The notes below the pieces were generated by a model. That model was not told the DNA's origin. It saw nothing but the letters and a program-made list of their open reading frames with translations, and ran no database searches. The position numbers were made by a program, and so were the translations under genes. DNA of 64,000 nt from Octopus sinensis (lineage: Eukaryota), in the NCBI RefSeq assembly GCF_006345805.1, contig NC_043006.1:94302001-94366000 (forward strand), read 5' to 3'. The first letter of the stretch is position 1. Each line of letters begins with the position of its first letter. Below, piece by piece: positions 724 through 57,893 of this stretch.

Positions 724-1458
724 CGAGGTCTGATCAATAAGTATCCGGACTGTTGCCATAGTAACTAAGCTAAAGCACGCCGAGTGAAGCCGCTTGGCAA
801 AGATTTACCTGGAACTTTGCTGTGCATGCGCATTAAGTTTTACCGTTCTAGCTCACTTCCACTATTTACAACAGTGCTTGGAAGGAAGATGTGTAGCGAG
901 TGATCGTCGCATTGACCATAGCAGAGAATGTTGTTATGGCGATATCCGCTCAGAGGCTTATGCAAAGTTGCAGAAAATGTATGGAAATCGTGGAATCACC
1001 ATCCGTAAGTTATCAGACATTGTGCAGATTAGTTATGGTTCAGTTCAACCCATCATCATTGAAGATCTGGGTATGAGATGCAAGCCTGCCACGTTTGAGC
1101 CCAAACTACTTTCAGCTAACCAAAAAGACATTCGAGTTTCAGTTGCACAAGATCTCCTTGATTGCATCGAGAATAATGAAAAGTTTTTGAAGAGTTTACT
1201 GGGCCTCTGAGCAAGTATCGCCAAGCTTTTTGGAAAAATTTGATGCAGATTCTCTGCTCAACTTTCTCTATCATGGTCAATGCGACGATCACGCGCCACA
1301 CACCTTCCTTCCAAGCACTGCTGTAGACAGCGTGAGCTAGAACGTTAAAACTTAGTACACAGCAGAGTTCAAGATCAGTTTGTACCAAGCGGCTTTACTC
1401 TGCATGCATTAGTTTTGTTACTATAGCAACAGTCCGGATACTTATTGATCAGACCATG
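724..1458. mobile_element. Non-autonomous Tc1/mariner derivative with ~230-250 bp inverted arms and TA TSD
   Basis: TA|cgaggtctgatcaataagtatccggactgttgc ... gcaacagtccggatacttattgatcagaccatg|TA. Plus strand encodes SEAYAKLQKMYG/NRGITIRKLSDIVQISYGSVQPIIIEDLGMRCKPATFEPKLLSANQK (mariner HTH and WVPHEL-equivalent region). Minus strand encodes MIEKVEQRICIKFFQK (mariner N-terminus). Confidence 0.9.
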
Positions 1459-6849: not shown

Positions 6850-7285
6850 ATGCCCTGATGTAGCATATTGCTGTGATAATAGCATAATAGCCATGCGTTG
6901 AAAGGAATACTTTGGGGTTTGAATAATTCACCTGTGGAATCAAGGGTGTTTTGTTCATCTTCCTTCAACAACTTACATTCCAAAATCTTTTGTGCAGATT
7001 CTCCTTTAAGCATTTACTAACAAACCCTAGAGCTCCAATTATCATTGGAATGAATATGAATTCATAGTCCTGATATAGAAGCTGGAGGTTTTGAAGCAGT
7101 TGTCCATAGATATCCTCTTTTTCTTTGATTTTCAAAGAATTATTTATATCTTTAGGGCAGTTGACCTCTACGACGGTACATACCTTTGCCCTTCTGTCCC
7201 AAACAACAATATCCGGCCTGTTATGCTTACATTTGATAGAAATTTCGATGGGAATATTCCACCAGTATTCCTCGTATGTATGTCG
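6850..7285 (-). mobile_element. RLE-type non-LTR retrotransposon 3' end (third distinct family) with 3' UTR ending in (ATT/ATC)n
   Basis: ORF 6965..7366 contains YWWNIPIEISIKCKHNRPDIVVWDRRAKVCTVVEVNCPKD..KEKEDIY..IPMIIGALG, a PD-(D/E)xK restriction-like endonuclease motif. Confidence 0.85.
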
Positions 7286-7687
7286 GTAGATACCCCCACT
7301 CACACACATGTACGTATATATGCATGTATGCACACAACTCTTGTCCATGTGTAGATATAGAGGCAAAATTCCAGAGTGAAATTAGCACGAGTTTAGTATC
7401 CAAACAAGTACTCTTATAGAAAAGCCTGAGCGACGAACTTCATTAAGTTCATGGCAAACATTTCCCCTAATTTCTGGTATGAGCATTTCCTAAAAGTGTG
7501 AGTGATCCTATAAAAGGCTTCTTCATCGAAAACAAGTCAACTATGTGGGTAGTCTAACAGTTGTGATAGTGACTGCTTGGACCCTCATAGGTCCGGGCCG
7601 ACTGGAGAATCCATTATGTGTGTGTGTGTTTGTTTGTTTGTCTGTTTGTGTGTATGTGTGTGCGTCTGTGCATATGTATAAATATAA

Positions 7688-14673: not shown

Positions 14674-14825
14674 TCAGACACACATGTACATCTGAGTATA
14701 TATACACACACACCCACATACATATAGTCAATCCAAACAAGAAGAAGCAAGAAAAACCTCAACGCGAGGACGTGGTACAAGTACTGTGTTATTGGACGCT
14801 CAGGAAAGGAAAGAAAGGAGAGAGG

Positions 14826-14860
14826 ATTTCACGTTTCGAGCGGAGCTCTTCATCAGAAAT
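14826..14860 (-). ncRNA. Minimal type-I hammerhead ribozyme motif (cleavage triplet reads GUG, likely inactive) in a short element ~14715-14925
   Basis: auuu CUGAUGA A GAGC ucc GCUC GAAA cg UG aaau; stems I and II pair perfectly. Confidence 0.65.
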
Positions 14861-14964
14861 ATAGAAAAAGTCCAAAGAAGGGAAGAAGGAGAAAGAAAAT
14901 CGCCAACGATACACACACGGTCACACAGACACACACACACATACATATATATACACACACATTT

Positions 14965-20285: not shown

Positions 20286-20424
20286 GTGTGTGTGTGTGTA
20301 CGGCTAGGAGAGACGGATGGTTAGCGCTTGCCTTCACAAGGACCGAATAGATATCATTTAATCTTTCTCACATAATCATTGTCATTGCTCTCTACTTCAG
20401 AGCAACACTTCTTTTCTATTTTAT

Positions 20425-35414: not shown

Positions 35415-35723
35415 GTAATACACAGATAACTCCTTAGACGGTTTTTATAACCTCTAGTTAATCTTACCTGTACATACATAGATAAATATATTAATCAATG
35501 AAATTCCAACCTAATCTGATTTTCACGTTTTATTATTTACAATTTTACAATATTATAATAATTCAGTTAAGAGAAGGATAAGAAAATATTAGATTTATAA
35601 GCCCTAAAATCCATTTTCCGAGTTCGATTCCAAGCAGTGACCTGAATAATAATAATAATAATGATGATAATAATAATAACAACAACAACATACATAAGAT
35701 ATCCAGGTTCGAAATTTTCCCAA

Positions 35724-35769
35724 AACACCTGATGAAGGCTGGAAGGTATATCAGCCGAAACGTTGTGTT
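35724..35769 (+). ncRNA. Intact minimal type-I hammerhead ribozyme (family F element ~35700-35820 next to (TAA)n)
   Basis: aacac CUGAUGA A GGCUG gaagguauau CAGCC GAAA cg UU guguu; 5-bp stems I and II; palindromic AACGUU in place of stem III. Confidence 0.8.
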
Positions 35770-35829
35770 ACCAACAAACAAGATGAGGACAAATATCCGT
35801 CAAATGTAAATAATGTATTATAATAATTC

Positions 35830-36030
35830 TTTCAACTGGAATCGCAGGGGAAGGGATTAAGTCGATTACATCGACTCTAGTCCTTATCTGGTATTTATTT
35901 AATCGACCCCCGAAAGGATGAAAAGTAAAGTCGACCTCGGCGGAATTTTAACTCAGAACCTAGCAACAGACGAAATACCGCTAAGCGTTTCGCCCGGCAA
36001 GCTAACGAATCTGCCAGCTCGCCGCCTTAC
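35830..36030 (-). mobile_element. SINE family B
   Basis: Reverse complement of family B, head ending ctgccagctcgccgcctt. Confidence 0.9.
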
Positions 36031-36077
36031 AATATTATAATAATATTATTATTATATTATCTTTATTTATTGTGATA

Positions 36078-49986: not shown

Positions 49987-50022
<36 letters not shown>

Positions 50023-50283
50023 AGTCAACTCGTGACCGAGAAAATGTTTCGAGAATCCAAGAAGTTCCTGCTCATGAATTTGTTCTGAGTGGATAAAATG
50101 TTGCCCCAGCGGTGATCCCATTTTTCAGCGCAATCAGTCATAACATCAGTGACACAATAGAGGTTGAGACAACCAGATACTATCTGCACTCAAGAATTAT
50201 TTTCTACTAGAAGGAAGTTCTGACACAAACTAGGGGTCCTTCGCTCCCATTGGTTCATATGCTAGTTAAACCTTTCTGTAGTT

Positions 50284-50397
50284 CATTATTTACATTATTT
50301 ACATTTCACGGATATTTGTCCTCATCTTGTTTGTTGTTAACACAACGTTTCGGCTGATATACCCTCCAGCCTTCATCAGGTGTCTTGGGGAAAATTC

Positions 50398-50446
<49 letters not shown>

Positions 50447-50631
50447 CAACAACAACATCGAAAAATACCATAGGAATGTGAACCCAGGTTCGAAATTTCC
50501 CCAAGACACCTGATCAAGGCTGGAGGGTTTATCAGCCGAAACGTTGTGTTAACAACAAACAAGATGAGGACAAATGTCCGTCAAATGTAAATAAGGTAAA
50601 TAATTCCCCATCTCTTAAATATAGAACTGTA
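50284..50631. mobile_element. Complete family F insertion: inverted pair of hammerhead-bearing repeats around (TAA)n, 12-bp TSD
   Basis: TSD ctttctgtagtt at 50272-50283 and 50632-50643; intact HHR on - strand 50339-50384; HHR with CUGAUCA mutation on + strand 50505-50550. Confidence 0.85.
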
Positions 50632-50703
50632 CTTTCTGTAGTTGTGGTAATTGTTGAATATATAAACTGATTGGCTGATTGTTTCTCTCGGATATGTCAA
50701 ATT

Positions 50704-50763
50704 GCTGTAAACGCCTCTGATGAGAATCCAATAAGATTCGAAAATGTATTAAGCTTGTTCAGC
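50704..50763 (+). ncRNA. Hammerhead motif (family G)
   Basis: gcug..gccu CUGAUGA GAAUC caauaa GAUUC GAAA augua UU aagc..cagc; perfect 5-bp stem II. Confidence 0.65.
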
Positions 50764-50881
50764 CTATTTTCCCTTTATAAACAGATAAATTAGCCCTATA
50801 TATAGGTATTATACCCGTTATACACACACACGCATGCACTCACACACATACATACATACATATATACATACATACATACAC

Positions 50882-52362: not shown

Positions 52363-53206
52363 GGATAAGAGGTGAAAAAGTCGAAAGGAATAAAACGGAG
52401 AGAAAAAATGCGTAGGGATTAACGGTTTATATATGTATATATATAAACACATACATGCACACATACATAAGTACATACATACACACATTCTAAAAGGTCA
52501 ATTTTAGCTTAAATGATACCAGAACTATAGTTATATCGTATTTTAAAACAACCTCTACTATCGTGTACCCTAAGGATTTGTGAGCCCTTTCCTAGAATAT
52601 ACTTTAAGAACAACTATCTAATAGCTGAATCCTCAGTTCGCTTCACCCACCCGCATGGCTAAAACCTTGAACAAAACTGCATAGGAACGTGTAGTTTTGA
52701 TGAATATATACAGCGACTAACCAACTAAATTCGCATCAAAGGATATTAGGACACTTGTCCAATAGAAACACGTGTCGGATTGGAATCTGATGTGAATTTA
52801 ATGAGAATAATACTACAATTAACAGATTTTGAAGATGAAATATTTCTCCATTCTTCTTTATGATGCCTTGATTATATATATAGGCTCGAAACGTTAAAGA
52901 CTTTCTCACTTCCCGGGCGTTAAACTAATACATTTATTGTTGTTTACACACCCGTCTTCGTCTTTTGTGTGTGTATATATATATATATAGAAAAAATATA
53001 TATAAGTCGAAACAATTTGTTGGCCTTTTATGATTTTTATAATTATTTATGTTATATAATATAATGTTATGTTATATTCATAGTATCTAATGTAATATTG
53101 TAATATAAGCAAATTTTGGGTTTGTGAATAATATATCTCTATATTTAATTATAAATATATATAATATATATATATATATAATATATATATATATTATATA
53201 TATAAA

Positions 53207-53640
53207 CATATGGTATAATTATAAACAGGGCATATGTTAGCCATTTCTCCGCAAACGGGAAAAAAATGAAGACCTTTAATCGATTTCCGAAACTTATCGG
53301 GTTTTCATCAGAGGCGCCCACGTCATTCTGACAGCCTCCACAGGACAGGCAGCTGAACTGTTTATATAATCAGCAAATGCAGCAGTTACTCCATGAAGGA
53401 GTCCCTAACGTGCATACCGAAAGTGTTCAACACTCTATAAATATCAGCGGCCTGTCAACGGGGACCTTAGTCAACACAGTGTCAGGGGTATGATATGGTA
53501 AATATCTGATATATGATATAATTATAAACTGGTCAAATTTTAGCCATTTCTCCGCAGATTGAAAAGAAATCGATTTTCGAACCTTATTGAGTTCTCATCA
53601 GAGGCGTCCACACTATTTCGACAGTCTCCAGAGAAACATA
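53207..53640 (-). repeat. Diverged ~300-bp tandem dimer, each unit carrying a hammerhead motif (53273-53317; 53566-53607)
   Basis: ttagccatttctccgca at 53237 and 53540; tcatcagaggcg at 53305 and 53595; second unit reads CUGAUGA GAAC ucaauaag GUUC GAAA aucgau UU. Confidence 0.7.
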
Positions 53641-53759
53641 TGTGTGTGTGTGTGTATACATACATACATACATACATACATACATACATACATACATACA
53701 TACATACATACATGTACATACGTATATCCTATCTCAGTGGACTGAGCCTGTTTTTTTCT

Positions 53760-53992
53760 TATTTCCTTACTAACCACAAGGGGCTAAACACAGAGAGGAC
53801 AAACATTGACAGACAAACAGATTAAGTCGATTATATCGACCCCAGTGCGTAACTGGTACTTATTTAATCGACCCCGAAAGGATGAAAGGTAAAGTCGACC
53901 TCGGCGGAATTTGAACTCAGAACGTAACGGCAGACGAAATACTGCTAAGCATTTCACCCGGCGTGCTAACGTTTCTGCCAGCTCGTCGCCTT
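53760..53992 (-). mobile_element. Young long-tail SINE family B
   Basis: Near-consensus reverse complement, including tail atttccttactaaccacaaggggctaaacacagag. Confidence 0.9.
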
Positions 53993-55069: not shown

Positions 55070-55945
55070 AAGGCGCCGAGCTGGAAGAAACGTTAGCACG
55101 CCGGGTGAAATGCTTAGCGGTGTTTCGTCTGCCGCTACGTTCTGAGTTCAAATCCCGCCGAGGTTGACTTTGCGTTTCACCCTTTCGGGGTCGATTAAAT
55201 AAGTACCAGTTACGCACTGGGGTTGATATAATCGACTTAATCCATTTGTCTGTCCTTGTGTGTCCCCTCTATGTTTAGCCCCTTGTGGGCAATAAAGAAA
55301 TAAGAAACGTTAGCACGCCGGGCGAAAAGCTTTGCGGTGTGTCGTCTCCCGCTACGTTCTGAGTTCAAATTCCGCCGAGGTCGACTTTGCGTTTACATCT
55401 TTTCTGCGTCAATAAACTAAGTATCAGTGAAACACTGGGGTCAATGTAATCGAATTAATGCTCTCCCTCAAAATTACAGGGCCTTACGCCTTCAGTAGAA
55501 AGGATTATATTATTAACGGATTGATAAAGAGCGACGAGCTGGCAGAAACGTTGGCAAGCCGAGCGAAAAGCTTTGCGGTGTGTCGTCTCCTGCTACGTTC
55601 TGAGTTCAAATTCCACCGAGGTCGACTTTGCCTTTCATCGTTTCGAGGTCGATTAAATAAGTACCAGTTACGCACTAGAGTCGATGTAATCGACTTAATC
55701 CCCTCCCGAAAGCTGCCTTTGTGGCAAAAATTTCAAATCATTATTAATGGATTGATGAATTCACAAAATCGGTAGAGTATCGTACAAAATGCCTTGTTGT
55801 GATATCAAATCCCCCTTTTACTCTTTGCAATCTGAGTTCAAATCCCGCCAAGGTTAACTTTGCCTTTCATTATTTCGAGGTGTTAATAAAATTAAGTGCC
55901 AGTTAATTTGTAGGGTCGGTCGATGGTAATCGCTAAATCCCTCTT
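55070..55945 (+). mobile_element. Head-to-tail array of four SINE B copies
   Basis: Copies at ~55070, 55303, 55528 and 55755, each with ttctgagttcaaat..gactttgc.tttca. Confidence 0.9.
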
Positions 55946-56944: not shown

Positions 56945-57893
56945 AAGGCGGCGGGCTGGCAGAATCTTTAGCACGCCAGGCGAAATGCTTAGCAGTATTT
57001 CGTCTGCCGCTACGTTCTGAGTTCAAATTCCGCCGAGGTCGACTTTGCCTTTCATCCTTTCGGGGTCGATTAAATAAGTACCAGTTAGCCCCTTGTGGGT
57101 AGTAAAGAAATAGAAACAGGTATTTCGTCTATCTTCACATTCAGAGTTCAAATTCTGCTGAGATCGACTTTGCTTTTCATCCTTTCGGGGTCGAAAAATT
57201 AAGTACCAGTTGCGTACTGGGATCGATCTACTCGACTGCCCCCTCCCCCTCCCCAAAGAGCTCAGCATATAAAGGCCAAATATTTTAGATGTGGCCTATA
57301 GGCACAGGAGTAGCTGTGTGGTGAGTAGCTTGCTTACCAGCCACATGGTTCCAGGTTCAGTCTCTCTGCATGGCACCTTGGGCAAGTGTCTTCTACAGCC
57401 ACGGGCCGACCATAACTGAAAGAAGCCCGTCGTATATGTGTGTATACATGCGTGTGTTTGTGTGTCTGTGTTTGTCCACCCAGCCAACATCGCGTGACAA
57501 CCGATGCTGGTGTGTTTATGTACCCGTAATTTAGCGGTTCGGCAAATGAGACCGATAAAATAAGCACCAGACTTACAAAGAATAATTCCTAGGGTCGATA
57601 TGCTCTACTAAAGGCGGTGCATGGCCACAGTCAAATGACTGAAACAAATAAAAGAATATATATTTCTTTACTACCCACAAGGGGCTAAACACAGAGGTGA
57701 CAAACAAGGACAGACAAACGGATTAAGTCGATTACATAGACCCCAGTGCGTAACTGGTACTTAATTTATCGACCCCGAAAGGATGAAAGGCAAAGTCGAC
57801 CTCGGCGGAATTTGAACTCAGAATGTAACGGCAGACGAAATACTGCTAAGCATTTCGCCCGGCGCGCTAACGATTCTGCCAGCTCGCCGCCTA
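56945..57893. mobile_element. SINE cluster: B(+) 56945-57112, B(+) 57119-57260, A(+) 57298-57660, B(-) 57662-57893
   Basis: Family motifs as above; the outer B copies are near-identical and inverted. Confidence 0.9.

Follow-up and report, generated by a model that had tools for sequence, protein, structure and literature searches.

A 348-bp insertion in the genome of Octopus sinensis carries two inverted arms, each with a hammerhead-like motif. It raises the question of what kind of element left it there, whether both arms arrived together and whether the ribozymes could still act. We analysed it within a window of 64,000 nucleotides (contig NC_043006.1, positions 94,302,001 to 94,366,000 of the forward strand), whose numbering is used throughout. 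Our answer, which we hold with considerable confidence, is that the 348 bp are two head-to-head, 5'-truncated, hammerhead-bearing repeat ends, likely the pLTR of an octopus Penelope-like element (PLE), that likely arrived in one event and are predicted to hold no working ribozyme.

Anatomy of the insertion and of its relatives

The insertion and a second copy of the same family comprise the following features:

50272..50283, no strand: left target-site duplication, 12 bp, exact, two window copies only
50284..50397, minus strand: inverted 5'-truncated copy of the repeat end, ending at the proximal 3' end point, without tail
50339..50384, minus strand: minimal type I hammerhead motif, core intact (descriptor match at 50379)
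50398..50457, plus strand: (AAT)n(AAC)n tract, family-internal (the second copy carries it at about 35645-35689)
50458..50491, plus strand: family sequence from tract to arm, 34 bases (Octopus predicted proteins match the frame from 50482)
50492..50604, plus strand: right arm, direct copy of the repeat end
50505..50550, plus strand: minimal hammerhead motif with G8C at 50515 (CUGAUCA), predicted inactive
50605..50631, plus strand: 27-nt 3' extension ("tail"), on one arm only, missing from the left arm and the second copy
50632..50643, no strand: right target-site duplication, 12 bp, exact match to the left copy
35551..35564, no strand: left 14-bp duplication of the second copy
35565..35815, plus strand: second family copy, 251 bp, single direct orientation, without tail
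35816..35829, no strand: right 14-bp duplication of the second copy

The 12-mer CTTTCTGTAGTT has only two copies in the window (50272-50283 and 50632-50643). Both abut the ends of the element, and the repeat cannot be extended. Among the 46,523 non-simple 12-mers of the window, 19 have an exact copy 320-380 nt downstream. This unique pair confirms the claim of the first-pass annotation that a 348-bp insertion (50284-50631) is framed by a 12-bp target-site duplication. Calling the insertion complete was overstated: the duplications do frame it, but both arms are 5'-truncated. The arms (50285-50397, minus strand, and 50492-50604, plus strand) lie head-to-head and point apart, and the match of 107 of their 113 bases bears out the inverted arrangement described earlier. 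With the second copy as outgroup, four of the six differences are private to the right arm and two to the left. The internal (TAA)n is present as well, as (ATA)15.3 at 50398-50443, and gives way to (AAC)n, which runs to about 50457. The 5' truncation of the direct copy falls within this tract, and the inversion junction (50397/50398) shows no clear microhomology or palindrome. Of the bases at 50458-50491, the final 10 or so are common to the second copy and the remainder differs. The inverted repeat stops short of the right end, as the right arm extends for 27 nt before the duplication. The left arm and the second copy stop in a 9-nt repeat just ahead of this tail, which would measure about 36 nt if the end point of the second copy were taken as reference.

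A solo copy had been placed at 35700-35820. It is real, but rather than a bare arm it is a 251-bp insertion with a microsatellite and a 14-bp duplication; a comparable AT-rich 14-mer finds such a copy by chance in 12 of 3,180 cases. It comprises a unique 5' part that includes a B-box-like 12-mer (35620), then the (AAT)n(AAC)n tract and an intact motif at 35724-35769. Because this copy shows the same tract and a 14-bp duplication, the tract is internal to the family and the length of the duplication is variable. The unique 5' head is missing from the 348-bp copy, which was therefore oversold as the best entry point to the family: the second copy extends about 80 nt further 5'. An 18-bp duplication (35545-35562 and 36027-36044) frames the second copy together with a SINE-like repeat of about 200 bp, and the 14-bp duplication is nested inside it. 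This repeat (35826-36030) belongs to a SINE-like family of about 180-200 bp, with copies 66-88% identical in both orientations at about 15 other places in the window (for example 53820-53992, 55070-55246 and 57717-57892), several of them with B boxes.

The two copies of the hammerhead family diverge just upstream of a common CCAG/GTTCG (35703 and 50484), a sequence similar to a 3' splice site. According to the available part of PMC4209133, an intron that ends next to the ribozyme can be present in PLE terminal repeats. The divergence could separate spliced from unspliced forms, or two subfamilies.

Further relatives came from a phmmer search with the open frame 50482-50631 (50 codons) as bait, which picks up predicted proteins translated by accident from the repeat. 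The 104 relatives (44-199 aa) are known only as translations, mostly unnamed and most of them from sister families; DNA-level copies number three. Named matches are O. sinensis LOC115224785 isoform X2 (at its N-terminus), O. bimaculoides A0A0L8FV75 (80-82% identity, tail included) and O. bimaculoides dystrobrevin beta X1 (in its N-terminal part). NCBI gene models of both species, for a cysteine-rich membrane protein in O. sinensis and for dystrobrevin beta X1 in O. bimaculoides, begin with repeat peptides. These family copies at N-termini are either exonised or annotation contaminants. The frame 50482-50631 was also considered as the start of a parent ORF, and is treated as incidental in view of the lack of any long in-frame relative, although the ORF of a PLE can begin within the pLTR.

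By analyst-set thresholds, 61 relatives have the tail and 29 lack it, whereas 8 are uninformative and 6 ambiguous. Most of the 29 break off where the left arm ends. An antisense match that beat 100 of 100 shuffles was found in 14 of the 104 relatives; one overlapped the sense copy and was dropped, and the other 13 lie upstream of it. The inversion junctions differ among relatives (positions are approximate), and some relatives contain head-to-tail units.

These patterns bear on the possibility that the insertion is a DNA MITE, with long terminal inverted repeats and a chance hammerhead-like motif. A MITE would be short and non-coding, with long inverted arms and a flanking duplication, as here. 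It would also have inverted termini with fixed ends and duplications of fixed length, whereas here the inverted repeat ends 27 nt before the right end, the single-arm copy has a duplication of 14 rather than 12 bp, and the relatives vary in inversion point and 3' end. The check on inversion points proposed in the first-pass annotation thus speaks against a MITE (13 inversions and two 3' ends among the 104 translated relatives). Because ends, inversions and duplication length vary, we consider this explanation most improbable.

Hammerhead motifs and their predicted folding

We ran a minimal type I hammerhead descriptor over the window and over 100 block-wise dinucleotide shuffles. Intact cores were found in the window at 50379 (minus strand) and 35729 (plus strand) only, and none in the shuffles; the motif of the right arm (50510) is picked up only with G8 relaxed. 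The left-arm motif has a stem I of 5 bp, CUGAUGA, an extra A, a stem II of 6 bp, GAAA and a palindromic ACGU, and cleavage is predicted to follow GUU at 50344. The core CUGANGA / GAAA / NUH with helices I and II is present in the left arm and in the second copy, and the right arm departs from it at G8. Hence, of the two divergent hammerheads claimed earlier, there is indeed a motif in each arm, but the right core is mutated to CUGAUCA (G8C). This change is most likely private decay, as far as sequence comparison can tell, because the codon matching G8 encodes E in 91 and Q in 2 of 103 aligned relatives; conservation of core codons is partly circular, the relatives having been selected by similarity. 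In a tested PLE hammerhead, G8C eliminated cleavage (PMC11167929, available part). Codon pairs that could reflect stem II covariation (R/R 32, W/R 21, W/Q 20 and R/Q 11 of 104) were left unused, as CpG decay confounds them.

Rfam 15 did not recognise the hammerhead motifs, and at the gathering score its only match in the window is to U6atac. More permissive Rfam scans gave no hammerhead family on the element, only generic hairpins (MIR2606, 41 bits for a cut-off of 140). The U6atac snRNA-like match (20294-20424, plus strand) scores 37 bits for a cut-off of 33 and has broken 3' stems; it is likely a pseudogene or a divergent copy. Elsewhere in the window, 14810-14875 (minus strand) holds a hammerhead-like core of another sequence family (CUGAUGA, a 4-bp stem II and GAAACG).

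The predicted folding energy of the insert is -183 and -189 kcal/mol. Isolated motifs form stem II with a probability of 0.6-0.9, against about 1e-21 in either full transcript, which backs the earlier suggestion that pairing of the arms masks the motifs. The antisense arm is transcribed before its motif in both directions. For this reason, read-through RNA from either direction is predicted to be a 113-bp hairpin and not an active ribozyme. Min-HHR activity is described in the available part of PMC4209133 as none for the monomer and low for the dimer. Self-cleavage of a dimer is here a prediction only: unconstrained co-folding of two copies did not recover the double-hammerhead fold. The models thus predict that the ribozymes of the 348-bp insert are silent today, because one strand has G8C, the other a lone monomer, and the antisense arm is made first. 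The statement that transcription in either direction meets a ribozyme does not survive: the plus motif has G8C, and the minus motif is a dimer-dependent monomer that follows its own antisense arm.

Such a hairpin would be a likely target of ADAR or Dicer instead of an RNA that cleaves itself, and it illustrates how insertions of this kind give rise to long RNA hairpins. In the parent, the ribozyme most likely worked on tandem transcripts, where dimers can form. One could instead imagine a switch maintained by the host that cuts or protects transcripts of both strands, given a motif on each strand and one intact core. Yet the right core has G8C, min-HHRs need a dimer where each strand has one motif, the antisense arm comes ahead of the motif whichever strand is transcribed, and Pfam finds no nearby host gene among the 150 longest of 202 filtered window frames. 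We find this hardly credible.

Descent, integration and age

We infer PLE descent from four diagnostic traits. The insertion contains a head-to-head inverted, 5'-truncated copy of the 3' repeat, an arrangement that recurs in 13 of the 104 translated relatives. It has an optional tail between two 3' end points, of 27 nt and on the right arm only. Its terminal repeat holds a min-HHR. Finally, its duplication is short and of variable length (12 and 14 bp, from two insertions only). In the available parts of the published descriptions, a typical Penelope insertion has a direct pLTR and an adjacent shorter inverted pLTR, with duplications of 8-10 bp, and Penelope has a 31-bp tail on one inverted pLTR (PMC3846280). 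The same arrangement is described with a tail of 30-40 bp (PMC8557442), and again in PMC8969392. PMC3846280 and PMC8557442, together with the tail, the variable inversions and the min-HHR, support the view of the first-pass annotation that an inverted partial LTR is a hallmark of Penelope.

From each duplication, read 5' to 3', both strands start with the reverse complement of the 3' end of the element. For a PLE protein of Anolis, cutting and extension of both strands have been shown, with two RT start sites that bound the tail (PMC11167929, available part). We propose that a Penelope RT/GIY-YIG protein, acting in trans, would have cut the two strands with an offset of about 12 nt, and that each 3' end set free would have primed one cDNA on the element RNA. 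One cDNA would have begun at the distal start site (the arm with the tail) and, some 234 nt on, ended within the (AAT)n tract; the other would have begun at the proximal start site (the arm without it) and ended after about 114 nt. The two cDNA ends would have been joined head to head and the stagger filled in, giving the duplication. Later neutral decay would then account for the 6 arm differences, one of which lies in the catalytic core. For the inverted pLTR, the alternative favoured in the available part of PMC3846280 is self-priming on an antisense template.

Two rivals concern this step. The first is that the arms have separate histories, with one insertion whose 3' part was later inverted and duplicated (by repair or template switching), or two insertions at one site. 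The 6 differences in 113 bases could then reflect two templates. However, the left arm ends at the proximal end point of the family, directly against the duplication, no second duplication is seen, and the same arrangement recurs in relatives. The perfect 12/12 duplication is also compatible with an arm divergence of 5.3% (P about 0.52). We thus regard separate histories as unlikely, and the same abutting end point and lone duplication support the claim that both arms arrived in a single event. The second rival is a SINE mobilised by a LINE, with an inversion by twin priming. The 12-14-bp duplications, the 5' truncation and the B-box-like 12-mer fit target-primed reverse transcription. In L1 twin priming, the inverted part is upstream sequence and not a second copy of the 3' end, unlike the inverted part here. 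Furthermore, the simple repeat is internal and not 3'-terminal, and two fixed 3' ends with a min-HHR are PLE traits, leaving this second rival very unlikely.

If the arms of this PLE insertion began identical, their divergence suggests an age of very roughly 7 My, because they differ at 6 of 113 bases and the rate is 0.0036 per My (PMC13282606, available part). An in-silico empty site was sought in the paralogous repeat 53190-53660. The two align to about 26 nt beyond the junction, but the upstream portion of the alignment, taken by itself, has no significance (662 and 100 of 1000 shuffles reach such a score).

In the left flank, broken frames at 50022-50231 (plus strand) recall, by eye, what we take to be the C-terminus of a Penelope endonuclease. 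As a decayed GIY-YIG domain, this flank (50022-50207) gave no Pfam match, and none of 4 candidates passed the homology search. To the right, 50644-50815 (plus strand) is an older repeat with its own hammerhead-like core at 50717 (CUGAUGA, a 5-bp stem II and GAAA, with stems I and III degraded and a weak Rfam match to HH9, E 4.3). It is likely a second PLE-type family, because there are two copies nearby, 67-81% identical (53212-53376 and 53568-53638, minus strand). On this sequence evidence, the 348-bp insertion would be nested in it or lie beside it. Farther away, a 138-aa frame at 6968-7381 (minus strand) has a PD..D..E-type motif and only weak nuclease matches in Pfam; it presumably resembles the restriction-like endonuclease of R4/Dong-type LINEs. 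A 140-aa frame at 788-1207 (plus strand) has a weak HTH match (E 0.0017), and we take it to resemble an N-terminal fragment of a mariner transposase.

The parent PLE was not found in protein-level searches: none of the 104 phmmer matches exceeds 199 aa, and the sole long match is a host gene model. The second copy raises the idea of a short Pol III-headed element (B-box-like motif, AAT tract, Penelope end) copied in trans by a Penelope protein, i.e. a Penelope-dependent octopus SINE. This is possible, though we doubt it: the reading builds on one B-box-like 12-mer at 35620, noticed after the fact, and this 12-mer has 15 matches at 13 loci in the window. No A box, expected 30-35 nt from a B box, was seen in the second copy, and Rfam and ARAGORN gave no tRNA match. 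If true, the many tiny inverted insertions would document the use of both RT start sites on the two strands of a single cut, so that a genome-wide test of how PLE inversions arise would become feasible.

Comparison with known systems

As a single locus, this decayed transposon stub of known architecture has small weight. It is nevertheless a compact specimen: a single event combines the two PLE 3' end points, in line with the biochemistry of Anolis Poseidon, which involves two strands and two start sites (PMC11167929, available part). Counting such stubs across a genome could put ideas on how PLE inversions form to the test. In the open literature (subscription journals and repeat databases lay outside the search), we found no paper describing an octopus hammerhead or Penelope family or a Penelope-driven SINE; the available part of PMC13282606 reports 30 recently active Penelope families in O. 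vulgaris, and the O. vulgaris repeat library of that study may already include the present family. An exact 42-nt scan of prokaryotic genomes gave no match, as expected.

The available part of PMC4209133 describes metazoan PLE min-HHRs with a short helix I, a long helix II (7-8 bp in Schistosoma, 6 bp in D. virilis), an extra nucleotide between 9 and 10.1 and a palindromic 15.2-16.2. These features are all found here, with a helix II of 6 bp. The same source already notes min-HHR pairs on opposite strands, 100-700 bp apart. Like the min-HHRs of Cervera and de la Pena 2014, ours are of type I, with a 5-bp helix I, an extra A after A9, G10.1-C11.1 and a palindromic ACGU without helix III. They differ in the cut triplet GUU and in the G8C of one copy.

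Schistosoma also has SINE-like elements with a hammerhead, which we take to be those named Sm-alpha and Sj-alpha. In the available part of PMC6765202, they have a promoter-like head upstream of the HHR, a likeness that holds provided the second copy's B-box-like 12-mer is genuine. They differ from the octopus family in that the latter has no A box or tRNA match and has a PLE-type tail and inversion. Animal non-LTR retrozymes, which derive from PLEs, are likewise short and non-coding, have a type I HHR and are related to pLTRs (bioRxiv 10.64898/2026.07.22.740005, available part). Their copies are tandem, whereas the window has an inverted pair and a monomer instead of head-to-tail HHR units, and a tandem retrozyme was rejected. 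No dimer cleavage or circle is predicted, because the two copies are inverted.

The named comparators are the EN+ PLEs of the Penelope/Poseidon type (Adineta Pen2/Pen2a, Anolis Poseidon PAc and Schistosoma Cercyon). With them the insertion shares the inverted truncated repeat, the one-arm tail, the short variable duplication and the min-HHR (PMC3846280, PMC8557442, PMC4209133 and PMC11167929, in their available parts), the tail being 27 nt here against the published 30-40. Unlike them, it has no ORF and retains only the terminal 234 nt and the inverted 114 nt. An ORF with RT and GIY-YIG was found neither in the insert nor, by Pfam, in the 150 longest of 202 filtered window frames, and an autonomous PLE was rejected on the lack of such an ORF in the insert. 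The architecture is one already described for PLEs, of which the 348-bp insert is a tidy example and not a new system.
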